Virus record (IMG/VR): IMGVR_UViG_2531839662_000025
DNA from: a virus
Taxonomy: Duplodnaviria; Heunggongvirae; Uroviricota; Caudoviricetes
Length of the DNA stretch: 58,745 nucleotides
Direction: 5' to 3' (one strand)
Shown: positions 25,665 to 54,678 of the stretch, piece after piece
Layout: the number at the start of each line of letters is the position of its first letter
Position numbering within the stretch: the first letter of the stretch is position 1
Position numbers and translations under genes: made by a program
Notes under the pieces: generated by a model
The model's database searches: none
Told to the model about the DNA's origin: nothing
What the model saw: the letters and a program-made list of their open reading frames with translations, nothing else

Positions 25665-26810
25665 TTACTTGCCAGCCTGAATTTCCAGAATCTTGATGGC
25701 GTTCGAATCCACCACACCACCGCCCAGATATTTCTGGGTATAGATGTTAATGAATCCAGGTTCGCTGAAATCCAGACGGGTACGCGTACCGGTTTCATGG
25801 TCAACGATGAAATAACCGCGCTTAAAGTCACCTACTGCAATCACACCGTCCGGCATAAATTCCAGATATTCAACCGGAAGCCCCAGCAGAGAATCAGGAT
25901 CACCAGCCTGTAAACGATCGCGCCAGATGTAATCACCAGTGGCATTTTTCAGTTTTTGTGCGGAGGCGGCTGTATTTGAGTTCATCACCCATACAGCTTT
26001 TTTGCGGTACTTATTGCGCAGCGTAAATTTCAGGTCAATCAGCATGTCGGCGCTGAGACTGCCAGTAACTTTTTTCGTCTGGAGCGTACCGAAAGGACGG
26101 GTTTTGTCGTTATCCGCAGTGCGCGGAAAAGCCAGGAAACCTTTAGCTTTTTTCTCGCCATCACCGGAAACCAGATCCGTTTCTTCGGTATCAACGAAAG
26201 TGTCGCCAATTTCAGAAGATAACCAGCCCATAATATCGACTTCGGAAAAATCGATAATTTCCTGAGTGGTTTTCGGGTAAGCGTAGATCGGATACAGGCG
26301 GATACTGACTTCATTCAGTTTTGGTGTTGCCGTCTGGTTACGTGCCGCACCTTCTTCGCCGTGTTCAACGACCGCACCCCCGGCAGAAACCAATTGCTTA
26401 AATTCATTGCTGTGAATGGTTTTAACAGTACAGATTTTACGCATCACCGATTCATCAGAAAGCTGACGCATAATTTCTCTGTTCAGTTCCGGGATAACCG
26501 TATAACCACCATCAGCCGGGACACTGCCGGACAGGTTGCGGGTTTCCCCGGTCAGAATGTAAGAGCGCAGTTCGTCTTTGGTTATTTTCTCTTCGACGGA
26601 AACACCAGGCTGGTTACGTTCTTCATCAGCCACAGATTCGAGGCGGGAAATTTCTGTGTCGAGGGAATCGGCTTTTGCACGCAGTTCATCAAACTGTTTG
26701 CCCTCGTCATCGTTCAGGCTGCGGTTTTCACTGTCGGCTTTTTCCAGCAGGGATCGCATCTGGTTTTTCAGGGCGGTTTTTTGCTGGCGGAGTTCGATTA
26801 ATTTCTTCAT
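25665..26810 (-). CDS. major capsid protein (HK97 fold, satellite-encoded)
   Basis: 381-aa ORF with N-terminal coiled-coil; related in pattern to the host prophage MCP. Confidence 0.85.
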   Translation of the reverse strand: MKKLIELRQQKTALKNQMRSLLEKADSENRSLNDDEGKQFDELRAKADSLDTEISRLESVADEERNQPGVSVEEKITKDELRSYILTGETRNLSGSVPADGGYTVIPELNREIMRQLSDESVMRKICTVKTIHSNEFKQLVSAGGAVVEHGEEGAARNQTATPKLNEVSIRLYPIYAYPKTTQEIIDFSEVDIMGWLSSEIGDTFVDTEETDLVSGDGEKKAKGFLAFPRTADNDKTRPFGTLQTKKVTGSLSADMLIDLKFTLRNKYRKKAVWVMNSNTAASAQKLKNATGDYIWRDRLQAGDPDSLLGLPVEYLEFMPDGVIAVGDFKRGYFIVDHETGTRTRLDFSEPGFINIYTQKYLGGGVVDSNAIKILEIQAGK

Positions 26811-27104
26811 GAAGGTTTTCTCGTATTGGTTAAGATTCAGGACGTGAAACCAACACGGAGGGAGCGCCGCCCGACACTCTCGGCATCTCGCAGATCAACC
26901 CGGCATCGCGCAGGGGGTCAGGCGGCATTGTGGCGGCTCACGTCTGAGTGCCACACGCCAACATATACATAAAAATCAGTATGTAAACATCAGCCAGAAT
27001 CACCGAACAACCTGGAACAACCACGAACAAATAATTTACAAAACCTGAAAAAATAAATAAGCTGTTCCGTACATTTTCTGCTCGTCAATCAGGAGGAACG
27101 AACT

Positions 27105-27578
27105 ATGTCAGAAAATGAACTGAAAAAAGCAATGTTCATTCAGCAACGATTGCAGATTCTCCACCTTGGTAAACACTATGATGAGTTCAGCGATTCTTAC
27201 GTGTATGCCTGGGAGGCAGATGTTTATCCTTTCTTGCAGGATGGCGACGGAAGTATTCCTACTCGCCCACATGAAATTTACGAAGAGTTTTTCGGCACAT
27301 CTAAAAACAAAGCTAAAAAGATATACGATCGTCTGTGCAAAGCCTGGCACGACCGGGAGGCGCTCACATTCTATAAACTAGAAAGTGAATATGGTGTAAC
27401 AAGTAGCAGCATGCACGGATGGACACGAAGTGATTTACTTCACATTTGCCGCTATCTGTATCTTGAGGGGTGTTTCGATAAAGATTTCTGGGAAACATTA
27501 CTGGAAAACGGAAAATGCCCAAGCGAAGCACTTTACCTTAGCGATGAATTTAATCGCGATACAGAGATCGACTTCTAA
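27105..27578 (+). CDS. hypothetical protein (accessory cargo gene of the satellite)
   Basis: 157-aa ORF on the opposite strand to all flanking satellite genes, lower GC, own terminator; no family recognised. Confidence 0.6.
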   Translation: MSENELKKAMFIQQRLQILHLGKHYDEFSDSYVYAWEADVYPFLQDGDGSIPTRPHEIYEEFFGTSKNKAKKIYDRLCKAWHDREALTFYKLESEYGVTSSSMHGWTRSDLLHICRYLYLEGCFDKDFWETLLENGKCPSEALYLSDEFNRDTEIDF

Positions 27579-27580
27579 AA

Positions 27581-27614
27581 ATAATGGCCTGGAAAATACC
27601 AGGCCATTATTATT
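27581..27614. terminator. bidirectional rho-independent terminator
   Basis: 10-bp stem AATGGCCTGG/CCAGGCCATT with T/A runs on both sides, between convergent genes. Confidence 0.6.
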
Positions 27615-27902
27615 CTACCGTTTCACGGGATCACGCATTCTGCGCCTTATTTTCCACAGATATTCGATCATCGCTTCCACCTGCTCACGGTTGGTTGCGA
27701 AAATTTCCCCGGTCAGTGAGCTACGCAGAAAATCATGATGATCCACAAAAAATAACGCATCGGAAGAAAGCAGCCGGCGATATTTTTTTACTGTCGTGGT
27801 TTCCAGATCATCAAAACCATGAAACTTTTTATGTTGCTGAACTTCTTCAAATGTCACAGGCATGTTTCCTCCTGCTACCACGATACCAGAAACAGTTAAC
27901 AA
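27615..27902 (-). CDS. hypothetical protein
   Basis: Track ORF; likely start MPVTFEEV at 27863. Confidence 0.4.
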   Translation of the reverse strand: MLTVSGIVVAGGNMPVTFEEVQQHKKFHGFDDLETTTVKKYRRLLSSDALFFVDHHDFLRSSLTGEIFATNREQVEAMIEYLWKIRRRMRDPVKR

Positions 27903-28204
27903 CCGTTATCAATTATCCCCTTTTTTTTCGGGTAGTTCCTGAACATCTCACCGCCAGGTTTCTGTAAGCCCATCCCGGTATGTGTGCGGTTTATGGCCTC
28001 TTTCAGTATTCCGAAATTATCCGGTATGACTGGTTGGCGCGCTGCCTTACGGATACATTCCGCGCGACGCTTTGCCACCTGTTCGCGCTCCTTGTCAGTG
28101 CTCACCAGCCACATAACATCAGCCCAACGTGCCGCCGCTCTCCGGTACAGCCCTTTAGCCTCCAGTTCTTCCGCTTTGCTGTCTTTAATCATGCTGTACC
28201 TCAC
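27896..28204 (-). CDS. PerC-family transcriptional activator homolog
   Basis: About 100 aa containing AEELEAKGLYRRAAARWADVM, the PerC/Pch signature as I recall it. Confidence 0.55.
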   Translation of the reverse strand: MRYSMIKDSKAEELEAKGLYRRAAARWADVMWLVSTDKEREQVAKRRAECIRKAARQPVIPDNFGILKEAINRTHTGMGLQKPGGEMFRNYPKKKGIIDNGC

Positions 28205-28207
28205 TGC

Positions 28208-28633
28208 TTAAAACGGTATCCCGTCCCCGTACGGATCATCGTGCTGGCCTGTCTGTTGTTTTGCCCTGTTCAGTGCGTCAGTAGCCTGGCCCTGCTGGCC
28301 TTTTTTGCCGCCCGGTCGCGCCGTTCGCGCACTGATTACGCTGTCTGCGATGACCTGCCAGCCCTGCCGCATTTCGCCGTTCTGGCCTGTCCACTGGCTT
28401 ACCTGCATGTTACCCGCCACACTCACCAGTTCGCCTTTCTGGTGTTTTGCCAGTGCATCGGCCTGTCTGCCAAACGCCAGGACGGATAACCACATCGTCG
28501 CCGTTCCGTCATCTGCCTGGCTGCACGGCAGGGGAACCGCCATACTCGCCATAGCCATTTGTGTCCCCTTGCTGGTGGTCTTTAACTGCGGGTCAGCCAC
28601 CAGCCGCCCGTAAGCCGCTATCTGTGCTGTCAT
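28208..28633 (-). CDS. single-stranded DNA-binding protein-like
   Basis: 141-aa ORF with Gly/Gln-rich linker and acidic C-terminal tail ending DGIPF. Confidence 0.55.
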   Translation of the reverse strand: MTAQIAAYGRLVADPQLKTTSKGTQMAMASMAVPLPCSQADDGTATMWLSVLAFGRQADALAKHQKGELVSVAGNMQVSQWTGQNGEMRQGWQVIADSVISARTARPGGKKGQQGQATDALNRAKQQTGQHDDPYGDGIPF

Positions 28634-28696
28634 GCTGTCTGTTCTCCGGTTTTAACGTTGATTGTTACGCTTGTTTACACCCTTACGGTGAAATTC

Positions 28697-28820
28697 TGCG
28701 GGTTATAATCGCACTTTTGCGGGTTATAACTGCCGTTTTGCGGGTTACGTGCGGGTTATTGATTTCCTTTTTATTCATACAGTTAATGCACTTATACACA
28801 GGATAACCCGCATAACCCGC
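28697..28820. repeat. putative satellite replication origin: GCGGGTTAT iterons at 21-bp spacing plus inverted copies
   Basis: Direct copies at 28697, 28718, 28739, 28751; inverted at 28803, 28812; immediately downstream of primase. Confidence 0.65.
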
Positions 28821-28843
28821 AACTTTTCACCTCACACAGGGGG

Positions 28844-30964
28844 TTAATCTTCTGCCTCAGGCTGGAACATCAGCACGTAAAAAACATGCTGCTTCCCCCC
28901 AATTTTGCCGAGCGCCTTTTTCTTGTAACGGCGATCGTTACCCGCTTCCAGCATTCCGGCAGCACTCAACGCGCGGGCAAAGTGAGACGGATTAAATCCC
29001 TGTGCTATCTCACCCTCAAATACATGCGGGAACGTGTAAAAACGGAACTCGTCATCTTCGTTTCTGATACTCCCCTTTCTGTATCCGGCAAGCTCTTTAA
29101 TCGGTAAATCACGCTCGTCGGTGTTGGGCCACGGAAGGTATCTGCTGAATCCGAACGACGCTAAAAAAGCCTCTGCCTGTTCAACCATCTGTTTAAACTC
29201 CCTGTTACCCGTGCCGAACTCCTTCACCCAGGCATTAAAATTATGCTGAATGGCATCGCGGCACGCCTGAACATCCCAACCAGTAATATGGACGGAAAGC
29301 ACCAGCGCCGACTCCAGCATGGCGAATCGTTCCCCCACACGGTGAACCTGTTCGCCGTAACTCTCCGGTATCAGGTTGCGCCACCGTTCACGGCATGCCC
29401 TTACCGTATCCTTTGCCTCCTGCTGGTGGTCTGCCAGCCATTTAACCCATTCACGCCCCGCCGCCCCGTGATTTTCTGTCCAGGCATCCTTTAACGCGTC
29501 TGCGTGTGCCTTTCCGGTGCTGTATTCGTGAAACTGCGTGGCTTTTTCCATTGGCACGTTAAGCAGGCGGACAAGCTGCCCCGCCTTGACTTTTATCCCC
29601 TCCGTTTTGAGGAATGTCTCAACGTCCATTTCTCCGGTGCTGATTGCCACCGTGCGCCAGTGTTTGATCTCCCTGTTGCCGCCGTCCTTCGCCCCCTGTA
29701 ATTTCCCCGAACCGTTAAACAGCGTATAAGCCGACGTGGACACTTCCCGCGCGTTTCCGGCCTGACCTATTTCATCTAGGGGTAATAGCCCGTCATTGTG
29801 CGCCTCTGCCTCGTTGGCGATGCCTAACGCTGTACCGTACCAGGTCAGCCGTTGCGCGTCCGGCTCTCCCCATAAACTGGATGCGATGTTCTGTGTGGTG
29901 GTTTTCCCTGCCGATGACTGTTCGAAAAGATGTACCCCGAAGCCGTCAGCGCCCACCAGCCCGATTAATGGTGCAGATAACGATACCGCCACACCCAGCA
30001 TCATGGACGGATTACCACCAGCCAGCCGCGCAACGGTATCGCGCCAGCCCTCCGCCGTTCCTGCCACGGAATAACCATTAACAGCAGCCGTTTTTCCGGT
30101 AAACAGGACTGGCTTTTCGCAATCACCAATGACCGAACCGTCCGGCATGATGTACGCGCCAAAATGCCAGCCCGTTGTTGTGCTTAACTGCCATTCCTCA
30201 TGGTTTCCGCTTAACTGCATCCAGTCAGCCAGGATAGCCCTGTATTTGCCGTTGGTTGTCACGTTCAGGCCGTGGTCTTTCAGCAACCGCCAGCCGTCAC
30301 GGTCGCCAATGCCACCACATGGGATCGCCATTGTGATGACTTCATGGTTTGCTGGCTTTTTCCAGCGCATCACGCGGTAATGCTCTTTACCGATCGTCCC
30401 CGTTCCCAGTAGTTCAAGCGGAGAACATAACCACGTCTCAGGCCGGATAATTTCGCCTGACTGCTTGTCCACTTTTGGCGTTACCCAGAAAACACCATCG
30501 GCGCGGCTTTCAACGCGGGGCTTTAATTCATCATCGCCCTGGCTTTCTGTGATTTTTTTCTTTAAGGGCAACACCAGACTTTCCCCGCGCTCGTATTCGT
30601 CTTTCAGTCGGGCAAGCTGTGGTGTCCAGTCCTCCAGTAAATCGCCGTTCTCGTCACAAAAACAGGCTTCCTTAACACCAGCCACTGCCAGCAGGGTTTC
30701 AATCTGTAGCGCCAGTTTGTCATCCAGTTTTCCGGCACGTCTGACGATGGCGCGTGACCGACCATCATCCACAATACGCAGGTTTTCCAGATTACCCAGG
30801 TCACGCCGTCCGAGATAAACAGGTGGTATTTTGTCGCCGCGCTTTCTGGCTTCTCCGCCCTGCATGTAATGCTCTGCATGGCTGTATGCGTCATCCCCCG
30901 CAAAAATCACTGCATCCTCGCCTTTATCTTTCGGTAACAGTTTTACGTTCGGTGCCAGTTTCAT
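28844..30964 (-). CDS. primase/helicase (P4 alpha-like replication protein)
   Basis: 706-aa ORF with Walker-type NTPase region (SSAGKTT). Confidence 0.7.
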   Translation of the reverse strand: MKLAPNVKLLPKDKGEDAVIFAGDDAYSHAEHYMQGGEARKRGDKIPPVYLGRRDLGNLENLRIVDDGRSRAIVRRAGKLDDKLALQIETLLAVAGVKEACFCDENGDLLEDWTPQLARLKDEYERGESLVLPLKKKITESQGDDELKPRVESRADGVFWVTPKVDKQSGEIIRPETWLCSPLELLGTGTIGKEHYRVMRWKKPANHEVITMAIPCGGIGDRDGWRLLKDHGLNVTTNGKYRAILADWMQLSGNHEEWQLSTTTGWHFGAYIMPDGSVIGDCEKPVLFTGKTAAVNGYSVAGTAEGWRDTVARLAGGNPSMMLGVAVSLSAPLIGLVGADGFGVHLFEQSSAGKTTTQNIASSLWGEPDAQRLTWYGTALGIANEAEAHNDGLLPLDEIGQAGNAREVSTSAYTLFNGSGKLQGAKDGGNREIKHWRTVAISTGEMDVETFLKTEGIKVKAGQLVRLLNVPMEKATQFHEYSTGKAHADALKDAWTENHGAAGREWVKWLADHQQEAKDTVRACRERWRNLIPESYGEQVHRVGERFAMLESALVLSVHITGWDVQACRDAIQHNFNAWVKEFGTGNREFKQMVEQAEAFLASFGFSRYLPWPNTDERDLPIKELAGYRKGSIRNEDDEFRFYTFPHVFEGEIAQGFNPSHFARALSAAGMLEAGNDRRYKKKALGKIGGKQHVFYVLMFQPEAED

Positions 30965-31260
30965 TTTTTACCTCTGGATGCGCTGAGCATGCTTTTTATT
31001 TTCTTAATATTTTCCCGTGCTTTTTCCCTGCTGGTGGGCTTACCGCGTGTTGCGTTCTGTACCAGAGAAAAATCACGCCGGAACTGATAAACAGGCATCA
31101 CGCAGTCATAGCCGTACCCATCACGGCGGTAAGTAACACACCGTCCCGCCACGCTTTTAATCGTTACAGTGCCGCCGTATTTATCTTTGAAAATATCGCC
31201 GGGGCGGATTTCAGGCCGAGCGGGGCCGCTGGCAGTAAAGCCAGAATTTTTCTGTTTCAT
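30961..31260 (-). CDS. hypothetical protein
   Basis: 99-aa ORF overlapping primase start. Confidence 0.45.
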   Translation of the reverse strand: MKQKNSGFTASGPARPEIRPGDIFKDKYGGTVTIKSVAGRCVTYRRDGYGYDCVMPVYQFRRDFSLVQNATRGKPTSREKARENIKKIKSMLSASRGKK

Positions 31261-31265
31261 GGTTT

Positions 31266-31493
31266 TTATTCCGCGTTTATTTTTTTATCGTGAATTTCGA
31301 TCGCTTTATTTAATTCGACGATTACCGTATCGAGTAATGAAATAAACGCACCAGCAAGATTAGATTCACGTTCATCTTCCGGCGCATCACTTAAACCATC
31401 AAGCCAGATAAGCAATATTTGCCGCAAACATTCACTGTTAGTCAGTGCGTTTTCTGCATGGCTCATTGATTTTAAATAACTGTCATCATGCAT
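31266..31493 (-). CDS. hypothetical protein
   Basis: 75-aa acidic ORF. Confidence 0.4.
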   Translation of the reverse strand: MHDDSYLKSMSHAENALTNSECLRQILLIWLDGLSDAPEDERESNLAGAFISLLDTVIVELNKAIEIHDKKINAE

Positions 31494-31689
31494 GGCTCAC
31501 CCCCTGACGAATACGGGCGGCGAATACCATCACACAGCCATCAGGAGATTGCTGGCGTGCTTCCTGTTCGCTGGTGGCCTCGATGTGAATTACGCGCGGT
31601 TGTGCCGTACTCAGGGCGATAAAACGCCAGATATATTTATTCAGGTTGTGCGAGTCCCGCCCTTGCGGGTGTGTGGTATGATTTAACAT
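31486..31689 (-). CDS. hypothetical small protein (67 aa)
   Basis: C-terminal part of the 357-aa track ORF; begins MLNHTTHP just downstream of the divergent promoter region. Confidence 0.35.
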   Translation of the reverse strand: MLNHTTHPQGRDSHNLNKYIWRFIALSTAQPRVIHIEATSEQEARQQSPDGCVMVFAARIRQGVSHA

Positions 31690-31766
31690 AGCTACCTCGA
31701 TACTCTTGCTATCGTTGGTGGTTAGACGCCCTGCATGTGTTGCGAGCACTGCGGGGCGTTGCTTAA

Positions 31767-31867
31767 TTTGAGTGACAAAACTCAAACTGTGCGCACAGAT
31801 TAAAATCATGTGTGCGCACATGTCAATACTTAACATCTCATTTTTTTTGCTGTATTGTGTGCGCCCA
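31767..31867. promoter_or_regulatory. divergent regulatory region with palindromic operator-like sites (TGTGCGCACA)
   Basis: Perfect palindromes at 31788-31797 and 31808-31821, half-site at 31856-31867, inverted repeat at 31767-31786. Confidence 0.5.
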
Positions 31868-31894
31868 TAAAGTCCATTTAAGTGAGGTGCATCA

Positions 31895-32092
31895 ATGTCT
31901 AGCGGTAACACAAACAACAAATCAGCAAAGAAAAATATTCGATTCCCACATGAGCTTATAGATGGGATTGATGCCAGCGTTGAACAAGAAAAATTAACTA
32001 ATCCTAGTGCTAATTTTTCCGCATGGGTCTTAGATGCCTGTGGACGCAAATTAAAATATGAACAGCGCCGGAAGGCCAAAGAATCAGAATAA
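31895..32092 (+). CDS. small putative DNA-binding regulator of the satellite
   Basis: 65-aa ORF transcribed away from the operator-containing promoter region. Confidence 0.4.
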   Translation: MSSGNTNNKSAKKNIRFPHELIDGIDASVEQEKLTNPSANFSAWVLDACGRKLKYEQRRKAKESE

Positions 32093-32134
32093 TCACTATC
32101 AGCGCCGTGGTGTGAGTAACTACGGCGCATTGCT

Positions 32135-32323
32135 ATGCAGGACAACACAATGACCGATAAAGAATTGACCAAAACATTATCACCGACACGGAAAAGACGG
32201 CGCAGAAAGATAGAGCATGAATCAGAAAGATTCGCACCTTGTTCGTTTGCTCTTGAGAAATTCCTTAAAGAGCGCAGGAAAAAGCTCTCGTTGCAAACCC
32301 TGGAACGAACCAAATCTGACTGA
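32135..32323 (+). CDS. small basic hypothetical protein
   Basis: 62-aa ORF followed by a plus-strand terminator. Confidence 0.35.
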   Translation: MQDNTMTDKELTKTLSPTRKRRRRKIEHESERFAPCSFALEKFLKERRKKLSLQTLERTKSD

Positions 32324-32389
32324 TCACATTGCCCACCAGCCGCAAATGTGGCATTGTTGGTGATGCTTTTGTTTTCCCTTGTTCCCACT

Positions 32390-32419
32390 GGCGACCCTTT
32401 TGCGGTCGCCTTTGTTTTG
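32390..32419 (+). terminator. rho-independent terminator
   Basis: GGCGACC/GGTCGCC stem followed by a T-run. Confidence 0.55.
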
Positions 32420-32703
32420 CCTGTTATCCGGCAATAGTGGCGCTTCGTCACCTGTCTGATATAATTCCACAGCTTATATTCATTTTTTGCGCAGTAGGTT
32501 AATTGTTCGCAAGGGCGCTCCGGCAACGGGGCGCTTTTTGTTTTTACCCACCAGCACAATAAAAATCTTCATTTTCCATTTTTGTAAAATTTCATGCTTT
32601 CCGGACGACTGGTCATATGTCATTTTTTAGCAGAAGATTTTGCCTTGCTGGTGGGTAGCTTCCCGGTCAACACGATGTACCGTATAATCAACACCGCGTG
32701 TGG

Positions 32704-33282
32704 TTACTGAATACGCTCACCAAAGTAAAACTCAGGCTGGTATTCACGTATCAGCCTTTTTTCTTCTTCCTCCAGCTCACGCTTTTTGCGCTTACATGCC
32801 TGTAGCTCCCTCCCCTTCTCACTGGCACTTATCTGGTATTGCTCTTTGCGGCGGGAAAAATCCTGTAATGCGCCCCACGGGATACCATAAGCCCCCGTTT
32901 TTCTGATACCCGGTATCACATTTCTGAATACCCAGTTACTGAAACGATGAGCAAATGTGCCAGGCGTCGTTGCTTTGCGGCTGCGGGCTATTAGTTTGTA
33001 GAAACCTGACTCGGAGATAATGCTCATATTCTGATTTCCTCCGGGGGTGTAAGTTAAATTTACTCCCTTTTCGTCATCATCAAGCATCTGCAACGCCGTA
33101 CGCGAATTGGTCAGTTCCAGCGCAGCACAAACATCCTTTGCAACAAACCACGGATCGCCGTTTAGATACACCACACGAACATCCACGCCATCAAAGCGCA
33201 GAACGACCAGATCACGAATATCACAGAATTTTTTCACATGACGTGCGTCACCCTTGCCCGTCACGGCAATATTTTTATTCAT
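32704..33282 (-). CDS. Bro-N domain protein (antirepressor-like)
   Basis: 192-aa ORF with Bro-N-like N-terminal region. Confidence 0.55.
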   Translation of the reverse strand: MNKNIAVTGKGDARHVKKFCDIRDLVVLRFDGVDVRVVYLNGDPWFVAKDVCAALELTNSRTALQMLDDDEKGVNLTYTPGGNQNMSIISESGFYKLIARSRKATTPGTFAHRFSNWVFRNVIPGIRKTGAYGIPWGALQDFSRRKEQYQISASEKGRELQACKRKKRELEEEEKRLIREYQPEFYFGERIQ

Positions 33283-33301
33283 TGCTTTTTACCTCACATA
33301 C

Positions 33302-33328
33302 AAAAAACCCCGCATTGCGTGGTGCGGG
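33302..33328 (-). terminator. rho-independent terminator
   Basis: 7-bp GC-rich stem followed by U-run on minus strand, after the AlpA-like gene. Confidence 0.6.
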
Positions 33329-33339
33329 GTTGTCGGTAA

Positions 33340-33618
33340 TTACTTATTGGCGTTTTTGTATGGGCTGTTTACTTCCTTTACTCCTGGCGGATGCATAACC
33401 CACCAGAGCACATCAGAGAGCAACCAGGAAACAGACACTTTCCCTAAATGAGCACGAGCAGGAAATGCTCCCTCCTGTTCAAGTACCCAACGTCTGCTTC
33501 TTGAAAGCCCGGTACGATTGGCACACTCATGTTCGCGTATACGGCGATCATACGGTTCGCCATGATCTTTCAGAATCTGAATGCGTTCTTCGGGTGTAGG
33601 ATAAATAAATTTTTGCAT
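33340..33618 (-). CDS. AlpA-family regulator / excisionase-like
   Basis: Track ORF 33340-33648; likely start MQKFIYP at 33618; small HTH protein. Confidence 0.55.
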   Translation of the reverse strand: MQKFIYPTPEERIQILKDHGEPYDRRIREHECANRTGLSRSRRWVLEQEGAFPARAHLGKVSVSWLLSDVLWWVMHPPGVKEVNSPYKNANK

Positions 33619-33681
33619 AAAAATATCACCTATAAAAAAACCCGCCAAAAGACGGGTTGATTATATCTCATTTAATTTAGC

Positions 33682-33915
33682 TCAGGGTTTCCATTCACCT
33701 TTTACCCATTCCAGCACCTCAGATAAGCGCCAGACTTTTGTTTGTGGGCCAATACATATTTTTCGTGGAAATTTTCCTTCCTTTTCAAGTAACGATCTGT
33801 GTCTCCTGCCAAGAGCGGTTAACCATGCACATTCATCTTCCTTAATCATCCTGTCGATTGTTTCATCATTTTCAAGTTCTTCACGCGTAACTATTTGAAT
33901 CATTACTGTCACCAC
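33682..33915 (-). CDS. AlpA-family regulator / excisionase-like
   Basis: 77-aa HTH ORF next to integrase. Confidence 0.55.
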   Translation of the reverse strand: MVTVMIQIVTREELENDETIDRMIKEDECAWLTALGRRHRSLLEKEGKFPRKICIGPQTKVWRLSEVLEWVKGEWKP

Positions 33916-35104
33916 TAATTTGCTTATTCAGATAGTCGTACCACCAGTTCATAGCTTCTTTTTTTCTGTCCATATACTGGCTTCTGTTATAAACCCCGGC
34001 AACACCGCCTAATGTGTGCCCAAGCAACTGTTCAACCACATTATGTTCAAAACCATGATCACTTAGTTTTGTGGCAAACACTCTTCGCATATCATGCGCC
34101 GTCCATTTCTCCGAGTGTTTCATCCTTTTCCATGTCTTACCGATAGTTACGCTTGCCGTACACTGACGCATATCAAACCCAATCACATTTTCTTTGTTAC
34201 CTGTTATTTTTTTTAACGTAACTAACCAGTTAAACATGCCATCAGGAATCGGTCTGATTATTTCCCTGCCATTTTTGCTATGATCAGCGGGAACGCGCCA
34301 TAATTTCTTATCAAAATCCCACTCTACCCAGGACGACAGTAATACTTCTGACAGTCGACAACCAAAAACTACCAGGAAACGTAAAATAATTCGGTTTTCA
34401 TATGATAATTCGTGATTGTCATAATCAGTATTAATACTTCGCCATAAATCTCTGATTTCATCATCTGTTAAAACCCTGCTTCTTCGCGCAGACTTTTTTC
34501 CCACATCACAGACCTCAAGATCATCAATTTCATGACTAATCGCGTATTTTCTTACCCTACAAAATTTAAGCGCCTGTTTTGATATACGCAACAAAGCTCC
34601 GGCCTGTACAGGTGCTACTTTTTTTATTTTGTCAAAACACTTAATCCACATAGATATAGAGCAATCACTAAGTGGTACATGACCAATCACCGGATAAATA
34701 TGTTTACCAAAGCACTGCCTGATATGTTCTGCTCCCCTACGCTTATCCATTGCATAATTATCAAGCCAGTATTCAAGTGCCTCACGAACGGTAACAGGTT
34801 GCAAGGTGGCTTCCCGTTCAATTTTTATCTGAATCCGTGGATCTCTGCCCTCCGCAAGCCAGGTTCGACACTGATCGCGCATCTCTCTCGCTGATTTGAG
34901 ACTCAGATCAGGATATTTTCCAAGTGTCAGCCAGATGGGCGCGGTTCCCCTTCCCGCCAGTCTGTAAAAGAAAACAAAACTAACACATCCGTATTTACTG
35001 ACCCGTACCGAAAGCCCGTTACCATCAGCGATGGTTTCCTGCCTCTCACTCCTGCGTCCAAGCAGGGAACGAAGTTTTTTATCGCTCAGTTTGTTTAGCG
35101 CCAT
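33881..35104 (-). CDS. tyrosine integrase (P4-type)
   Basis: Track ORF 33881-35140; likely start MALNKLSDKKL at 35104; P4-type N-terminal arm-binding pattern and C-terminal catalytic region. Confidence 0.8.
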   Translation of the reverse strand: MALNKLSDKKLRSLLGRRSERQETIADGNGLSVRVSKYGCVSFVFFYRLAGRGTAPIWLTLGKYPDLSLKSAREMRDQCRTWLAEGRDPRIQIKIEREATLQPVTVREALEYWLDNYAMDKRRGAEHIRQCFGKHIYPVIGHVPLSDCSISMWIKCFDKIKKVAPVQAGALLRISKQALKFCRVRKYAISHEIDDLEVCDVGKKSARRSRVLTDDEIRDLWRSINTDYDNHELSYENRIILRFLVVFGCRLSEVLLSSWVEWDFDKKLWRVPADHSKNGREIIRPIPDGMFNWLVTLKKITGNKENVIGFDMRQCTASVTIGKTWKRMKHSEKWTAHDMRRVFATKLSDHGFEHNVVEQLLGHTLGGVAGVYNRSQYMDRKKEAMNWWYDYLNKQISGDSNDSNSYA

Positions 35105-47471: not shown

Positions 47472-49043
47472 TTACTGAGAGGTCAGATCAACTTTCCAGG
47501 GCAACAGATCGCGTACCCGGTTTGCCGGCCAATCCTGGATATGCTCAATGACGTAACGCAGCCATTTTTCTGGTTCCACATTGTTCAGACGGCATGTGCC
47601 GATCAGCGAGTACAACACCGCCGCATGTTCGCCACCGCTGTCGGAACCCGCGAAGAGCCAGTTTTTCCGGCCTACGGCCACTCCCCGTAAGGCGTTCTCT
47701 GCGATGTTGTTGTCGATTTCCACCCAGCCATTACTGCAGTACACGTTCAGGGCCTCCCACTGTTTCAGCAGGTATGCGAACGCTTTTGCCGTATCCGAGT
47801 GACGCGACAGTGTTTTCATCTGTTCCTGTATCCAGTCATACAGTGACTGCATCAGTGGAGCCGCTCTGGCTTTTCTTGCTGCCAGACGCTGTTCTGCTGA
47901 ACATCCCCGGACTTCTGCCTCGATGACATACAGTTCACCGATACGCTGCAGGGCTTCCGTGGTGATGTCGGTGGGCACTCTTGCATGCACATCGTGGATT
48001 TTTCTCCGGGCATGGGCCATACACGCGGCTTCCGTTATTCTGCCGGATTCGTATAACGCCCGGTAACCACCGTAAGCATCTGCCTGAAGCACACCGCTGT
48101 AACCGGCCAGGTGATTCTGTGGATGGATACCTTTCCGGTCCGGGCTGTACGCGAACCAGACCGCCGGGGGCATCTGTGAACCGGCGTTACGGTCATCACG
48201 GACATAGACCCACAGCCGGGCAGTTCTTGTTTTACCACTGCCCGGCTCCTGGACCGGAACGGGGATATCATCCGCATGGACTTTACCGGGCATCAGCACA
48301 TACTGGCGCAGGACGTCATACAGCGGCTCCAGCAGTTCAGCAACGGCACCTGTCCAGCGCCCCAGCGTGGCGCGGCTCAGCTCCACGCCCTGGCGACGGT
48401 ATATTTCTGACTGGCGGTATAACGGCAGATGGTCTGCATATTTCCCGGTAACAACATGGGCCAGAAGCCCCGCTCCGGCATAACTGCGTGCAATGGGTTT
48501 TGAAGGTACTGTTGCCTGCACGATATGGTCGCACCGACAACAGGCCAGTTTCGGACGTTGTGTTTCGATAACCTTAAAGGCGCTGCTGATAAGCTCCAGT
48601 TGCTCTGACACATCACACCCCAGAGGACTGAGGTCACCACCACAGGCCGGGCAGCATTCCTCTTCCGGCCGGATGACCCGGGTTTCACGGGGAAGTGAGG
48701 CCGGTAACGGTTTACGGGCTGAAGACTGGCGCAGGGCGGATGGCAGTACCGGGTCATATTGCTCACCCAGCGTTTCCGCCATTTCTTCCTGAAGTGCGCT
48801 GATTCGCTCCTGTGCTTCCTGTATCTGCCGTTCGGTTTTAGCGCGAAGTTTTTCTGAGCTTTTACCGAACTGCATGCGCTGCAGTTTCGCAACCAGCGCC
48901 TTCAGCCGGTTGATTTCGGAAGCATAAGCCGCCACCCGCTGTGAGAGCAGGCGGTTGTATTTCGCCATCTGGCGGATGGTGTCCTGTTGCGTCTGCAACA
49001 GTGCCCGCAGGCGGGCATTCTCATGAGCAAGTGAGGTGTCCAT
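47472..49043 (-). CDS. tnpC: IS66-family transposase TnpC
   Basis: 523-aa ORF with N-terminal leucine zipper, CCPACGG zinc motif and DDE-type core. Confidence 0.9.
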
Positions 49044-49062
49044 ATCCTCACTTTACAACGGG

Positions 49063-49411
49063 TTATATGCGGATGCCAGCGCGTTCCGTTCGTTTCGGGT
49101 GCTTCCAGTCGATGCCTTCGAGAAGCATGGACAACTGAGCCGGAGTAAGGTGAACCTTTCCATCGCGGGTGACCGGCCAGACGAAGCGGCCCCGCGTCCA
49201 GGCGTTTGGTGAAGAGGCACAGTCCGTCACTGTCAGCCCACAGCACTTTTATCTGGTCACCCCGGCGTCCGCGGAAGATGAACAGATGCCCGGAGAACGG
49301 GTCATCCTTCAGGACGTTCTGAACTTTTGAGGCCAGGCCGTTAAAGCCATTTCGCATATCGGTGATACCGGCAACCAGCCAGATACGCGAACCGGCAGGG
49401 AGAGATATCAT
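49063..49411 (-). pseudogene. tnpB: IS66-family TnpB, apparent +1 frameshift in a G-run
   Basis: Track ORF 48902-49411 leaves the expected frame after KRL; the shifted frame gives RFVWPVTRDGKVHLTPAQLSMLLEGIDWKHPKRTERAGIRI and stops just before tnpC. Confidence 0.5.
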
Positions 49412-50061
49412 CAGTGGCTGCTCCCTTTCATTTCGCGGATAAGTGTCTGTAATAACGCCGGTGTCAGTTCACCTTTCAGCCTGAGAGTTCCGGCCGGCAG
49501 AACCAGCTCGCAGCACAGACTGTCTGGCAGTGTATTTATCTGTTCAGGTATCTGCACTGGTGCCGGGATTTTATTATCCGGCTCCGGAGTTAACGTCACG
49601 GGAAGTAGCGATGTTTCATGTTCGCCGGGCGGTTGCAGGCCACCGTTACGCCAGAGATGCCGCCAGTTAAAGAGCAGGTTATCGTTAATTCCATTCTCTC
49701 GAGCTATTTGTGCGACACAGGCACCGGGTAAAAGAGTTTGCTGAACCAGTCTCCATTTAAACTCCGGTGAAAATCGGTTCCGGCGGGGTTTCTCTGCTTT
49801 CACAGGCTGAGTCACGGTCGGGGCTGAAGGGTATCGCCCCGGGAAAAGAGCCCGGGCCAGTTGCCCGCAGGAATATTCACCGGAAAGAGGCCAGTCAGTG
49901 AATACCTGGTGAAATCGCCTCACCAGAGAAAAAATGGTGGTTTTGCTGACACCGGTCTGCGCAGAAATGCGCGGGTACGACAGTGACTCGTCAAATCTCA
50001 GCTGTAGCACACGCAGGATCAATTCCGGATTGTCTGCCAGTACCGCTTTTCGTGCATTCAT
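49411..50061 (-). CDS. tnpA: IS66-family accessory protein TnpA (orf1)
   Basis: 216-aa HTH ORF at the start of the IS operon. Confidence 0.7.
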   Translation of the reverse strand: MNARKAVLADNPELILRVLQLRFDESLSYPRISAQTGVSKTTIFSLVRRFHQVFTDWPLSGEYSCGQLARALFPGRYPSAPTVTQPVKAEKPRRNRFSPEFKWRLVQQTLLPGACVAQIARENGINDNLLFNWRHLWRNGGLQPPGEHETSLLPVTLTPEPDNKIPAPVQIPEQINTLPDSLCCELVLPAGTLRLKGELTPALLQTLIREMKGSSH

Positions 50062-50484: not shown

Positions 50485-51432
50485 TTACCCCCTGAACCCC
50501 GGCGGAATTTCGGTGTCCGGTTCAGAAATGTGATTCACGCAACGCTGTACAGGCGAACGCCCCAGACGAATAACCAGCTCATCCCATTTTTCGCGAAGCT
50601 TTGACGGGCTCATGACGTTTTTTACCCAGAATGGATCCCGCTGTACCCGACCAAACATTTCGCAAATTTGTCTGTGAGTTCTGCCATCCAGCATCCGCAT
50701 TGTGCGCACATCATTGGCCCATGCAGTCCAGTTGGGTTCTTTCGGTCGCATGATTTCGCCATCATCGCTGGCAGCCTGCTCGTAAAGACTCACGATTCGT
50801 CCCCAGATCCACTGCGCACACGCTAAATCTTCCTGGCTGCCCCACTGGCGTTTTTTCGCACTGAACACAACCGCGTCAGGGTGTCGGGTTAAAAAATCCT
50901 GTTCAGCCGTCTGCGAGTCCGGTTGCGAAGCTTCCGGACGAAAAGATCTTTTATCTGACGGATCAGGTTTTAATACTGACGGATCGGGGCCAACCATCGC
51001 CCCCCTAACCGGATGTTTTTTATCAACGGTTGATCCATCAAAATTTGAGGGGTCAATCGTTGAGGGGTCAATATTTGACGGGTCATTTTTTACCGGGTTA
51101 ATTTTTCTTTTCGGTTTATATGCCTCACGCGCCGCCGCTGCTGCTGCTTCGAGTTTTTCCACATTAAGACGGTAGATATTGCTTTCATTACGCCCACCGA
51201 CCTTACGTTCTTCCTTCGTCAGCCAGCCGTTCTTTTCCAGTTCTGCTATCGCAGCTTTAACCGTTGATTCACTCTTTGCCCCAATCTGACGACGAATGGT
51301 CTCCACTGCAGGCCATGACACACCTTCGTCATTGCTGTAATCTGCAAGGCGAGCCATTACTGCCACCCTGGATAAGATCATGCCGGTGAAGGCACACCCT
51401 TCCCAGACAAGACCATGAAGCTTGCTGCTCAT
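50485..51432 (-). CDS. replication initiation protein, lambda O-like
   Basis: 315-aa ORF: N-terminal HTH, internal peptide repeats (DPSNIDPSTIDPSNFDGSTVD) encoded by DNA iterons. Confidence 0.7.
   Translation of the reverse strand: MSSKLHGLVWEGCAFTGMILSRVAVMARLADYSNDEGVSWPAVETIRRQIGAKSESTVKAAIAELEKNGWLTKEERKVGGRNESNIYRLNVEKLEAAAAAAREAYKPKRKINPVKNDPSNIDPSTIDPSNFDGSTVDKKHPVRGAMVGPDPSVLKPDPSDKRSFRPEASQPDSQTAEQDFLTRHPDAVVFSAKKRQWGSQEDLACAQWIWGRIVSLYEQAASDDGEIMRPKEPNWTAWANDVRTMRMLDGRTHRQICEMFGRVQRDPFWVKNVMSPSKLREKWDELVIRLGRSPVQRCVNHISEPDTEIPPGFRG
50954..51106. repeat. origin iterons inside the O-like gene
   Basis: Tandem TTGAGGGGTCAAT / TTGACGGGTCATT / TGACGGATC repeats followed by an AT-rich stretch. 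Confidence 0.6.
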
Positions 51433-51455: not shown

Positions 51456-51881
51456 TTAGTGCATCACCACGGCATTTCCCGCCGGACCACCACGATTCAT
51501 CTGATTGAAACCAGCGATCGCCACTGCGACAAAATCATCAGCGTCTCTCACCAGTCGTTCCCGCATCTCCACCAGCTCCCGAAAATAGGCTGAACTGTGG
51601 CTGCGCATTCGGGCCACCAGCAGAGGTGGCATTGCCTTTTCGATCGCCGGTAACAGCGCCTGAATTTTTTTAACCGCATCAGGGGTGTCTTTCTCCACCC
51701 AGCGGAAAATTTTCTGAGTATTGCGAGCCAGGGCTTCCGGATGCCTGTCGTCATATAGCTCCGGGAACGTCATACCAAGCTCAAAATAAGCCTGGGTTAT
51801 TTCAGCTGCCGGAACTTTTTCACCGTCCGGATGCGCCCAGGCATTCATCGCCATGCGGATGTGTTCATGCTTGATTTTCAT
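51456..51881 (-). CDS. YdaT-like protein (CII-like regulator)
   Basis: 141-aa ORF closely resembling Rac YdaT as I recall it. Confidence 0.6.
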   Translation of the reverse strand: MKIKHEHIRMAMNAWAHPDGEKVPAAEITQAYFELGMTFPELYDDRHPEALARNTQKIFRWVEKDTPDAVKKIQALLPAIEKAMPPLLVARMRSHSSAYFRELVEMRERLVRDADDFVAVAIAGFNQMNRGGPAGNAVVMH

Positions 51882-52093
51882 TAATCATTCTTTCCTTCGT
51901 TCGAGGTGCTATCCTGCTTCTTGTAAAGTTCTGGGTTGTATTTCAATTCACCGTTAGTAATTTCATCCAGTTCCATTGCGCGAAGTTTGGGAATAACTGC
52001 TTTCCACCGCACAACAGCCACATGTGAAATTCCAAGAGCCTCAGCTACTAGTCGCTTTTTTTTGAAATAGCGCAGAACATCATCTTTGAACAT
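51881..52093 (-). CDS. Cro-like HTH regulator (YdaS-like)
   Basis: 70-aa HTH ORF divergent from the cI-like gene. Confidence 0.65.
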   Translation of the reverse strand: MFKDDVLRYFKKKRLVAEALGISHVAVVRWKAVIPKLRAMELDEITNGELKYNPELYKKQDSTSNEGKND

Positions 52094-52121
52094 AAAACTC
52101 TCCTGTTATTTCGAGCGGGAT

Positions 52122-52184
52122 GGTAACAATAGTTACATAGCAATGTCAACCATAGCAACATCACTTGGTAGTAACATTGGTTAC
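52122..52184. promoter_or_regulatory. operator sites in the cI/cro-like divergent promoter region
   Basis: GGTAACAATAGTTAC (52122-52136) and GTAACATTGGTTAC (52171-52184); palindromic half-sites GTAAC/GTTAC. Confidence 0.55.
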
Positions 52185-52859
52185 ATGAAAAACACTATCA
52201 GCGAACGTATTCGGAATCGTCGAAAAGACGTTGGATTAACCCAACAGCAGGTTGCGAAAGCAATCGGCATATCTCGTGTATCCGTAACAAAATGGGAAAA
52301 TGGCTCTTCAAAACCTGACGGTGAGAATTTGCATCTACTGTCAAAATTGCTTTCCAAATCTCCTGAATGGATTCTTTATGGAAAGGACTGTCACGATAAA
52401 ACCGATGATCTGCGTCTGAATCAGTACCCTTACATTAGTGACAACATCGCCCGGTTGCCCGTTTTAACGTGGGAACAGGCTGGTTATTGGGATATGAGTT
52501 GTCCAGTAACCGAGATTCCTGGTATTAAGAATTGGGTTGATGTCATGACAAAAACCGCTGAAAACTCTTTTTTATTGCATGTTGAGGGAGATGCGATGAC
52601 AAACTCTAACGGCCTCCCAACCATCCCCGACGGATCTACCGTGCTGATCACACCATGCTCAAGTAACATTAGAGAACTGGTGGGAAAAATAATCTTAATC
52701 CAATTGGAAGGAACGCCAAACGTAACACTAAAAAAAGTTGCGATTGACGGACCAAACATCTATCTGTTGTCACTGAATCCGCTTTACAAACCCATCGAAC
52801 TGAATGGTGGTTACACCATTAAAGGTAAAGTTTCACAAATACATCAATACTTAGACTGA
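52185..52859 (+). CDS. CI-like repressor (HTH plus S24 LexA-like peptidase domain)
   Basis: Track ORF 52086-52859; likely start MKNTISER at 52185 (alternative 52143). Confidence 0.75.
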   Translation: MKNTISERIRNRRKDVGLTQQQVAKAIGISRVSVTKWENGSSKPDGENLHLLSKLLSKSPEWILYGKDCHDKTDDLRLNQYPYISDNIARLPVLTWEQAGYWDMSCPVTEIPGIKNWVDVMTKTAENSFLLHVEGDAMTNSNGLPTIPDGSTVLITPCSSNIRELVGKIILIQLEGTPNVTLKKVAIDGPNIYLLSLNPLYKPIELNGGYTIKGKVSQIHQYLD

Positions 52860-52864
52860 GTCAG

Positions 52865-52891
52865 AACCCGCATTCATTGCGGGTTTTTTAT
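52865..52891 (+). terminator. rho-independent terminator after cI-like gene
   Basis: AACCCGC/GCGGGTT stem followed by TTTTTT. Confidence 0.65.
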
Positions 52892-52930
52892 GCTCTCGAA
52901 TGTACCTTTTGCAACACTGTATTGACTCGA

Positions 52931-52950
52931 AAGGTAACTCTTGTTACCTT
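52931..52950. promoter_or_regulatory. operator, perfect palindrome AAGGTAAC-TCTT-GTTACCTT
   Basis: Same GGTAAC half-site as the cI/cro operators, overlapping a TTGACT -35-like hexamer at the head of the leftward operon. Confidence 0.55.
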
Positions 52951-53050
52951 AACGACATACCAACCCACCCCGCCCCACAGAACGCAGGGCAATACTTCGA
53001 GTTACCAGGCAGTGGTCAGGGGTTAAGTAGCCAGCCCGAGGCGTAAGAAC

Positions 53051-53185
53051 ATGACGGCAGGGTTCAACTTTAACTATGCAGCAGGTTTTTGTTCCGCTAC
53101 CCCGGCGTTAAGGGGAAACAGCACTGAGAGGAATCAGTATGCAGAAACGAGAACCCGTCATCATCGCGCCAGACTATACCGATGA
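53051..53185 (+). CDS. possible small ORF (44 aa, YdfB-like position)
   Basis: Hand-translated MTAGFNFNYAAGF...; overlaps the start of the next gene in another frame. Confidence 0.25.
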   Translation: MTAGFNFNYAAGFCSATPALRGNSTERNQYAETRTRHHRARLYR

Positions 53186-53357
53186 TGAACTTTATGAGTG
53201 GATGCGCCAGAAAATTACGGCAGCGCAGGACCTGAAGTGGGCCAATGAAGCCAGGGCTAAGCAGGCTGAAAATCTGTCCGCTCTGGAGCAGGATATCACC
53301 AGGCTGGAAAAAGCAGCGGCATTAAGCATTGCCAGAATGATTACATACCCGCGTTAA
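53139..53357 (+). CDS. YdfC-like small protein
   Basis: 72-aa ORF resembling Qin YdfC as I recall it. Confidence 0.55.
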   Translation: MQKREPVIIAPDYTDDELYEWMRQKITAAQDLKWANEARAKQAENLSALEQDITRLEKAAALSIARMITYPR

Positions 53358-53492
53358 TAGCTAACCAACGAGGCTAAGGTTGGTAATTAAGGAGTTCTCC
53401 ACGGGTCAGGTGGAGTGCGTGCGCCGGACACGGGTGAGCATCCGGCACGTTCTTTAAAAATCTGGATAGTCCCAACTTATTTAAACGGTTAA

Positions 53493-53927
53493 TTATCTTG
53501 AGTTCATCCAGAACTTATTATTGCAAGCGGGGCAAAAAGTACGAAAATGAGCATCAAAGCGCATTATTTCCATTGGCTGAAGTACAGATATTACCTTTTT
53601 TCCAAAGCATTGTGGGCAAAGATGCACAGTTATCTCAGTATCGCCTATAAATTGCTTCTTGGAATATACAAGGGTTCCAGAATCAAGCTTGTTAAGCTTG
53701 TAACCTTCCGCCTGTCGCTGAAAATCTTCTGTCTCTGCAATTTTTGCTTTGAGATGCATTATCTCTTCATCACGAAAGCGGATCGCATCGCAAAGAGAGA
53801 AGCATTCCGCCTGAAGCGTGATTAGTTTGTTCTGAAGTTCAATAGTTGCGGCTTTAACTTCTGCATCCGTTTTTGCGTCATTAATAACCTTAGCGAGACC
53901 AGCTGTCTCCTTTATCGCAGCCATAGC
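53493..53927 (-). CDS. hypothetical coiled-coil / zinc-ribbon protein (reverse-oriented moron)
   Basis: Track ORF 53493-54068; likely start MAAIKETAG at 53927; C-terminal CPQC...CPAC; AT-rich; antisense to the surrounding plus-strand operon. Confidence 0.5.
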   Translation of the reverse strand, partial: AMAAIKETAGLAKVINDAKTDAEVKAATIELQNKLITLQAECFSLCDAIRFRDEEIMHLKAKIAETEDFQRQAEGYKLNKLDSGTLVYSKKQFIGDTEITVHLCPQCFGKKVISVLQPMEIMRFDAHFRTFCPACNNKFWMNSR

Positions 53928-54249
53928 TGCTGACAGTTCTGCTATCACGTTGAGTACTCTTCTCGTTGTTGGGGATATCCGGATTATACGAATTTCTTGT
54001 TGTTGGGGAATAACAGGAACCACCTCGCCTGACGTGGTTAAAAGCAGGCACACAACGCGAAAGCGCACGGCGAGGTAGCTGGTTCATAGATAGCCTGTCG
54101 TTAAATTTTCGTCGACAGTGCGCTTCCGGTTGTGGCACTCCGCGAAATGGCGCGGCGGTAAGTATGGCGGGGTTATCCTTGCCCCATTAGTGGCACCGGG
54201 TTGTCAGGTTGACCATACGCCTGAGTGACAACCCCGCTGCAACAACCCA

Positions 54250-54306
54250 TGTTGATTACCTTTTTGGCGGCATCAGTTTCATTGCTGGCTGATGTCCGCC
54301 CTTTTT
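54250..54306 (+). ncRNA. dicF: DicF-like small RNA
   Basis: TTTGGCGGCATCAGTTT...CTGATGTCCGCCCTTTTT resembles E. coli DicF from memory, including terminator hairpin and T-run, immediately upstream of dicB; ends approximate. Confidence 0.45.
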
Positions 54307-54489
54307 AAAGTGAATTTTGTGATGCGGTGAATGCGGCTCAGCGCACGCGGAACAGTTAAAAAGGCCAGTTGACTTCCGTATTGGTTCTTATGGGTGGGTT
54401 CTCTGTATCCGGCGTTAATTATTAACTGGTTAACGTCACCTGGAGGCACCAGGCACCGCATCACAAAATTCATTGTTGAGGACGCGATA

Positions 54490-54678
54490 ATGGAAACGTT
54501 ATTACCAAACGTTAATACGTCTGAAGGTTGTTTTGAAATTGGTGTCAGAATCAGTAACCCTGTATTTACTGAAGATGCCATTAATAAGAGAAAACACGAA
54601 CGGGAGTTATTAAATAAAATATGCATTGTTTCAATGCTGGCCCGTTTACGTCTGATGCAAAAAGGATACTGGCAATGA
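54490..54678 (+). CDS. dicB: cell division inhibitor DicB
   Basis: 62-aa METLLPNVNTSEGCFEIGVRISNPVFTEDAINKRKHERELLNKICIVSMLARLRLMQKGYWQ, near-identical to K-12 DicB as recalled. Confidence 0.8.
   Translation: METLLPNVNTSEGCFEIGVRISNPVFTEDAINKRKHERELLNKICIVSMLARLRLMQKGYWQ

Follow-up and report, generated by a model that had tools for sequence, protein, structure and literature searches.

Palindromes of a GTAAC class as the very probable operators of a P22/phage 21-type immC switch in an Escherichia coli prophage

The question raised by the region between about positions 52,122 and 52,950 of the Caudoviricetes record IMGVR_UViG_2531839662_000025 is what purpose is served by the palindromes found on both sides of a cI-like repressor gene. 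The whole 58,745-bp stretch was analysed and is referred to here as the window, to which all coordinates apply; it matches part of the chromosome of E. coli UMNF18 at 100% identity, where the prophage is located between yccA and a tRNA-Ser gene. A sequence-only reading of the same DNA had taken three palindromes with a common half-site for the operators of an immunity switch, and our analysis leads to a closely similar answer: the palindromes are very probably the operators through which CI and a Cro protein of the P22_Cro family run a switch of the P22/phage 21 immC type. The kind of immunity is already known, and the DNA specificity class is one for which no description was found in the literature, where searches likewise turned up neither the exact operator 14-mers in full text nor an account of the operators of ZF40 or mEp390.

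The sites are clearly present and statistically unique within the window. The motif GTAACNNNNGTTAC (GTAAC-N4-GTTAC) has three exact matches in the 58,745 bp, designated OR1, OR3 and OL1 for the right (OR) and left (OL) operator regions (Table 1), as compared with 0.04 expected from 100 dinucleotide shuffles, none of which contained three. When up to one mismatch is allowed, just two additional and unrelated matches appear (37334 and 43221). In a scan with a position weight matrix (PWM) trained solely on the sites of relatives, with the window left out, the three palindromes occupy ranks 1, 2 and 3 among 58,732 positions with 21.9, 20.3 and 18.9 bits, respectively, and the fourth-ranking position scores 11.5 bits, which leaves a 7-bit gap below them. 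Their centres vary (AATA, ATTG and TCTT), and the arms consist of two 5-bp half-sites around four bases. The earlier coordinates were correct to within one base, position 52122 being a surplus G, but the half-site had been given as GGTAAC; the actual half-site is GTAAC, and the extra G/C occurs in three of the six half-sites and is not kept in relatives. The third palindrome, which had been described as a perfect 20-bp palindrome, turns out to be an 8-4-8 inverted repeat in which the 8-nt arms AAGGTAAC and GTTACCTT are perfect and the TCTT centre is not self-complementary.

The location of the sites relative to genes and promoters is also as the sequence-only reading had proposed. Two of the palindromes lie inside the 91-bp gap between the divergent cro-like and cI genes, whereas the third is located 75 bp past the repressor stop codon and overlaps the predicted -10 element of the promoter PL, in line with the claim that one site overlaps the promoter of the operon past cI. 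In a sigma-70-type scan of positions 51800-53500, the candidate promoter PR was the sole promoter-like site, with 10 of 12 matches, and it is here that OR1 overlaps the -10 element; both the -35 and the -10 flank of PR are kept in the alignment of relatives. PL was read from the sequence, and the relatives keep TTGAC(A/T) and TAC(C/A/T)TT at the PL spacing.

Next, the positions of the sites are conserved. Relatives were found by a protein search with CI (42-98% identity), followed by contig loci, phage records and four further E. coli alleles. A CI search of one genome per species gave only two irrelevant helix-turn-helix (HTH) matches, and the phage collection contained no sequenced phage with a CI more than 43% identical; among complete E. 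coli genomes, 702 of 5,426 carry at least 80% of the cro-OR-cI-OL segment. The comparison comprised 14 other loci of the GTAAC class, namely two from E. coli (one of them the common allele), a metagenomic contig with an 88% identical CI, a Salmonella-type relative, loci from Hamiltonella, Arsenophonus, Yersinia and Pantoea, three more metagenomic contigs, and the phages ZF40, AH07 and Klebsiella ST101-KPC2phi6.3. In all 14, across the 42-98% range of CI identity, OR1 is kept at the same place and the spacing between OR1 and OR3 is exactly 48 bp, and the gap between OR3 and the ATG is 0 nt in 13 loci and 1 nt in the other; the divergent cro-like gene is syntenic in the 13 aligned relatives. Between OR1 and OR3 the relatives diverge save for the PR -35 and one half-site, and of the site centres only the 4 bp in OR3 are conserved. 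On the OL side, 10 of the 11 relatives checked possess a site where OL1 lies, between a TTGAC(A/T) -35 and a TACnTT -10, and in most of them a further recognisable site precedes the PL -35. Within E. coli, four alleles have no single-nucleotide polymorphisms (SNPs) in the cores of OR1 and OR3 despite variable flanks, and the cores of OL1 and OL2 are unchanged in the three alleles that can be aligned at OL.

The palindromes also vary together with the recognition helices of both proteins. In mEp390, YeP1 and Lys8385Vzw, which have CI proteins about 39-42% identical and represent an apparently uncharacterised type, the layout is kept, with OR1 and OR3 separated by 47-48 bp, the ATG abutted and two OL sites flanking the -35, whereas all OR and OL sites read GTAGG-N4-CCTAC or a close variant. 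The third helix of CI in this swap class reads RVTVTGWE in place of RVSVTKWE, the Cro helix reads SVSGW or SVSEW in place of AV(V/C)RW, and the catalytic Ser, which is missing from the CI of the window, is present. Since ZF40 combines RVTITKWE with GTAAC sites, the Lys/Gly position is the one that tracks the operator class. The same position of CI aligns with Gln37 of P22 c2, a residue that contacts bases in the co-crystal structure (PMC5175364). A parallel change in CI, Cro and all the sites is what would be expected if both proteins read the palindromes.

Finally, the overall arrangement matches the annotated layout of the P22-type switches. In the phage 21 record the OR sites are annotated at 1120, 1142 and 1168, with the c2-type ATG at 1186, one base past the last site, and OL2 and OL1 are annotated as flanking the PL -35; the layout of the window (0, a probable middle site at +23, and +48, with the ATG at the last site) matches that of phage 21 (0, +22/23 and +48). 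Further features shared with the P22 and phage 21 immC regions are an HTH_3 and S24 repressor that aligns to the N-terminal domain of P22 c2, a Cro of the P22_Cro family, operators in both OR and OL that consist of 5-bp half-sites around four central bases, a distance of 48 bp between the outer OR sites with the cI-proximal one adjoining the start codon, and an OL1 between the PL -35 and -10 with an OL2, weak here, just upstream of the -35. In the P22 operators, positions 2-7 and 12-17 are contacted and positions 8-11 are not (PMC4267663). The half-site, however, is GTAAC here and TTAAG in P22 (consensus ATTTAAGATATCTTAAAT), which sets the two apart in immunity and predicts heteroimmunity, and the recognition helix has a Lys where c2 has Gln37. 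Also in contrast to P22, there is no space for an OL3, the cII-type gene is of the YdaT family, the nucleophile Ser of the repressor is replaced by Ala, and PL drives ydfC, a DicF-like RNA and dicB and not an N-type antiterminator. With the lambda switch the locus has in common the divergent arrangement of cI and cro, a probably tripartite OR whose site centres are about 23-25 bp apart, a homologous C-terminal domain of CI, an OR1-type site that would occlude PR and an OR3-type site that would occlude PRM, and presumably a leaderless cI mRNA, whereas lambda has an HTH of another subfamily, 17-bp operators of unrelated sequence, a Cro of another fold family and a CI with a Ser149/Lys192 dyad, the Ser of which is an Ala here.

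In a switch of this kind, dimers of CI, and also of Cro, would recognise the 14-bp core of GTAAC and GTTAC around four bases, which by analogy with P22 c2 are probably uncontacted. OR1 is positioned between the -35 element of PR and its -10, as is OL1 in PL, each supplying the 'TAC' of the -10 hexamer, so bound CI should exclude RNA polymerase. Occupation of OR1 by CI would then silence cro, the ydaT gene and the replication genes, and occupation of OL1 would silence ydfC, the DicF-like RNA, dicB, exo and int, with OR2 and OL2, on the far side of each -35, probably filled cooperatively. OR3 holds the candidate -10 of PRM and ends at the cI ATG, and the maintenance cI mRNA would thus be leaderless or nearly so, as is the lambda cI mRNA transcribed from PRM; Cro bound at OR3 would turn cI off, as would excess CI in a negative autoregulation. 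From this arrangement we infer physical binding, the transcription starts, cooperativity, the sequence in which the sites are filled and an activation of PRM by way of OR2.

The repressor contains HTH_3 (2e-16) and Peptidase_S24 (9.6e-17) domains according to Pfam, and a phmmer search relates it to the N-terminal domain of P22 c2 (2.5e-12) and to full-length lambda CI (2e-14). While the start codon at 52185 is common to all homologues, RefSeq places the start at 52143 (238 aa), and that annotation is probably over-extended by 14 codons. The additional 'MST...NIGY' residues are a translation of the PR -35 and OR3, the ATGTCAA at the RefSeq start being the complement of the TTGACAT of the PR -35, and the longer form was rejected also in view of a stop codon in the corresponding extension of Hamiltonella and of distant homologues that are annotated or called without it. 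In the catalytic domain, CI has GDAM where the homologues have G(D/E)SM; Ala137 (GCG, 52593-52595) aligns with the nucleophile Ser of lambda CI in 'GNSM', and the G-[DEN]-S-M motif of self-cleaving repressors therefore lacks its Ser in this protein. The residue is a Ser in 10 of 13 aligned homologues, it is retained in the relatives with 88% and 67% identical CI, and it is reported to be invariant in all S24-type CI clades of Shiga toxin (Stx) phages (PMC8951638). The remaining elements are kept: Lys184 is found in a Lys183-Lys184 'TLKKV' segment that aligns with the 'TFKKL' of lambda holding the catalytic Lys192, and the cleavage site Ala99-Gly100 ('QAGYW') aligns with 'QAGMF' of lambda. Moreover, the 63-bp segment with the Ala137 codon is identical in 681 of the 683 complete E. 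coli genomes with the gene. LexA S119A and lambda CI Ser149 mutants do not self-cleave, and by this comparison the CI with Ala137 is predicted to be a repressor that does not self-cleave in the SOS response. The window has no canonical LexA box (CTGT-N8-ACAG), and hence there is no obvious LexA-controlled antirepressor.

Could the palindromes instead bind another protein, such as YdaT or a host factor, or have arisen by chance or for structural reasons, for example as RNA hairpins? YdaT is another DNA-binding regulator encoded in the region; the published YdaT site (TTGATT-N6-AATCAA), however, is different and has its match elsewhere, at the cro/ydaT junction, and the palindromes vary together with the CI and Cro helices and not with the cII-type gene, as relatives with Phage_CP76 in place of YdaT keep GTAAC. 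The chance expectation of 0.04 matches and the position of the sites in promoters, not transcripts, with 5-bp stems and 4-nt loops too weak for hairpins, make this explanation highly improbable, whereas the conservation in position and sequence, the co-variation with the helices, the promoter overlap and the immC-like layout support the earlier proposal that the sites would be operators of an immunity switch. The previously given list of sites was right for the three that it named but incomplete, with the weaker OL2 and probably OR2 having been missed. Whether these two sites take part in the switch is less clear-cut, as it is conceivable that only OR1, OR3 and OL1 bind and that OR2 and OL2 have decayed or were never functional, which would leave a pair of independent repressions with no cooperative pairing and no activation of PRM by CI. 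OR2 matches 6 of the 10 core positions (-3.1 bits) and OL2 matches 7 of 10 (rank 25 of 58.7k), OL2 is degenerate also in the two closest relatives, and the left half of OR2 is at the same time the PR -35, whose promoter role by itself would account for the conservation of that half. Yet L006, L014, L015, AH07 and Klebsiella phi6.3 have a second strong OL site 34-35 bp from OL1, exactly at the OL2 of the window, and OL2 has been spared by SNPs in the three E. coli alleles. As to OR2, its distance of +23 from OR1 is that of the middle operator annotated in phage 21, which likewise consists of one good and one degenerate half; the right half of OR2 reads GTTAC in five relatives, among them Pantoea, Klebsiella and Arsenophonus loci, and turns to CCTAC or CCAAC along with the other sites in mEp390, Lys8385Vzw and YeP1, and one E. 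coli allele has GTAAC at OR2. These comparisons make OR2 a probable, if not established, second operator, and an OR of only two operators is unlikely. An alternative OR2 register at 52155-68, at 32 bp from OR1 and mimicking the OL1-OL2 spacing, was rejected, as it scores -6.2 bits versus -3.1, its distal half is unconserved in relatives, and both the mEp390 class and phage 21 put the middle site at +23.

The operator assignment may also be extended, not excluded, by supposing that the switch has become a locked, domesticated repressor module in which the CI operators are genuine, CI is uncleavable owing to Ala137, the prophage is defective, and cro and replication together with the dicB and DicF-like inhibitors are permanently off. 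The Ala in place of the lambda-aligned Ser, with Lys184 and Ala99-Gly100 kept, points in this direction, as do its near-uniformity in E. coli carriers as opposed to the reportedly invariant Ser of the Stx-phage clades, the absence from the window of a canonical LexA box to drive an antirepressor, the IS insertion, pseudogenes and nested element in the prophage, and the dicB and DicF-like RNA in the PL operon. On the other hand, the intact and conserved state of cro, the ydaT gene and all the operators suggests selection beyond one-way repression, close relatives keep the Ser, induction might proceed via an antirepressor or proteolysis, and several of the frameshifts may be assembly errors; we regard a locked module as a serious possibility that falls slightly short of an even chance. 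As for the assignment of the palindromes to a CI/Cro switch, a number of observations weigh against it. No binding, footprinting or transcription-start data for the element or for any relative of the GTAAC class were found in the literature, the TACCTT -10 of PL is below the 4-of-6 threshold of the promoter scanner, and PRM has no recognisable -35. To these are added the poor match of OR2 and the promoter-related conservation of its left half, the fact that with Ala137 one would not expect RecA to flip the switch in the classical manner, and the decay of the prophage, visible in an IS66 insertion, a frameshift in the O-like gene and an element nested in terL, such that the switch may no longer govern a viable phage.

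On its own, a CI/Cro switch with these operators is what one would expect in the regulation of a lambdoid prophage, and its value is practical. Operators and probable promoters are now defined for an immunity type that roughly one complete E. coli genome in eight carries, ST131, O111:H8 and O55:H7 strains among them, and the same scaffold is present in prophages of Yersinia, Pantoea, Klebsiella, Pectobacterium (ZF40) and the aphid symbiont Hamiltonella; the annotated cI start is corrected, and a natural specificity swap (GTAAC versus GTAGG, Lys versus Gly) becomes available. The predicted protease-dead allele of CI bears on the DNA-damage response of these prophages and of their dicB and DicF-like genes. 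A bolder proposal, which is tentative and in our view rather doubtful, is that the inner half-site bases are set by a single position of helix 3 according to a simple natural code, in which Lys36 here goes with GTAAC, the Gly of the mEp390 class with GTAGG and Gln37 of P22 c2 with TTAAG, while Arg changes in parallel to Gly/Glu in Cro, and that the version most frequent in E. coli (about 13% of complete genomes), with a dead S24 protease, cannot be flipped by SOS, holds cro and DicF-like/dicB off and is induced, if at all, by some other route.

Table 1. Coordinates of operators, promoters, genes and other elements of the switch region in the window.
Feature	Position	Strand	Sequence	Description
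OR1	52123..52136		GTAACAATAGTTAC	Covers the PR spacer and 3 nt of the PR -10; exact motif, PWM rank 1
OR2 candidate, weak	52146..52159		TCAACCATAGCAAC	Overlaps the PR -35; PWM rank 359
OR3	52171..52184		GTAACATTGGTTAC	Abuts the cI ATG (52185), holds the candidate PRM -10; exact motif, PWM rank 2
OL2, weak	52902..52915		GTACCTTTTGCAAC	6 bp upstream of the PL -35; PWM rank 25
OL1	52934..52947		GTAACTCTTGTTAC	Arms reach 52931-52950; covers the PL spacer and first 3 nt of the -10; exact motif, PWM rank 3
PR candidate	52120..52149	-		-35 TTGACA (52149..52144), 18-bp spacer, TG-extended -10 TACCAT (52125..52120)
PL candidate	52922..52950	+		-35 TTGACT (52922-27), 17-bp spacer, TG-extended -10 TACCTT (52945-50)
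Candidate PRM -10	52172-52177		TAACAT	7 nt ahead of the cI ATG, within OR3
cI	52185..52859	+		224 aa; HTH_3 and Peptidase_S24, Ala137 in the nucleophile position
cro-like gene, P22_Cro family	51881..52093	-		Pfam PF14549, E=2.8e-16, residues 3-60
ydaT-family gene	51456..51881	-		Second gene of the PR operon; Pfam YdaT_toxin PF06254, E=9.6e-10
YdaT-box-like inverted repeat	51871..51888		TTGATTTTCATTAATCAT	Located where cro meets ydaT; candidate site for the control of a PRE-like promoter
Intrinsic terminator after cI	52865..52889	+	AACCCGCA/TGCGGGTT	8-bp GC-rich stem, 5-nt loop, T6
ydfC	53139..53357	+		First gene of the PL-controlled operon, RefSeq annotation

Around PR, the cro-like gene has an AGGAG Shine-Dalgarno sequence 5 nt upstream of its ATG, and SNPs are concentrated between this sequence and OR1; the -10 element reads TACCAT in the window and TACCCT in the common E. 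coli allele (52117-52121). A 13-nt direct repeat, CATAGCAATGTCA and CATAGCAACATCA at 52136-52148 and 52151-52163, 15 bp apart, spans the PR -35 and OR2 and is weaker in relatives. On the other side of cI, the hairpin and T-run are found at the same place in nearly all the relatives shown, and a match to the Rfam Trp_leader family at 52799-52892 (26 bits, gathering score 41) proved to be merely the cI terminator.

The PL operon continues after ydfC on the same strand with the DicF-like RNA, dicB, an exonuclease gene and int, interrupted by an open reading frame on the opposite strand (53493-54068). The presence of ydfC, the DicF-like RNA and dicB past the repressor is reminiscent of the Qin prophage, in which dicA/dicC control the dicB operon (ydfA-ydfB-ydfC-dicF-dicB), but the repressor here is a full-length S24-type CI and not DicA. 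With these genes in the operon, repression at the PL-type promoter would keep cell-division inhibitors off. Just upstream of dicB there are two sub-threshold Rfam matches, to DicF at 54250-54301 (32 bits, gathering score 48) and to STnc100 at 54299-54522 (34 bits, gathering score 47). The leader downstream of PL (52957-53138) is conserved in prophages of other immunity types, and for roughly 160 nt (52955-53116) the identity to prophages and phages whose immunity regions differ is about 90%, with no annotation in those records; the leader has neither an unusual RNA fold (z=+1.2) nor a match in Rfam.

The second gene of the PR operon is named 'toxin YdaT family protein' in RefSeq. In CP-933P of E. 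coli O157:H7, YdaT is described as the equivalent of CII and has its site at the end of the cro-like gene (PMC9986795), and TTGATTTTCATTAATCAT has one mismatch to this published site and is placed as in CP-933P, although at up to two mismatches the window contains three YdaT-box matches versus 3.7 by chance. By its location, TTGATTTTCATTAATCAT may be the YdaT control site of a PRE-like establishment promoter, and the ydaT-family gene would supply the cII function. The two systems are alike in having a YdaT-family CII equivalent downstream of the cro-like gene, but the maintenance repressor of CP-933P in the PaaR2/YdaS/YdaT system is PaaR2, encoded in an operon with a ParE toxin-antitoxin pair, and not an S24-type CI, and the operators differ (PMC8630535, PMC9986795). 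The ydaT side of the window matches O157:H7 prophage regions with a RelE/ParE toxin gene at about 91% nucleotide identity.

Several other features of the prophage were noted. An IS66-family element (IS679-like, with tnpA, tnpB and a transposase gene) occupies positions 47472-50061 inside an early-region DUF977 gene. Three tandem TTGAGGGGTCAAT-like iterons at 51040-51090, inside the O-like replication gene that RefSeq marks as frameshifted, are probably the prophage origin. Within the terminase large-subunit gene, at about 20300-35100, an element of approximately 15 kb is nested that has an integrase of its own, and its genes encode regulators, a DUF927 primase, a single-stranded DNA-binding protein, PerC, capsid, protease, portal, connector, HNH, TerS and TerL proteins; with these genes and no tail genes, the element resembles a capsid-forming phage satellite.

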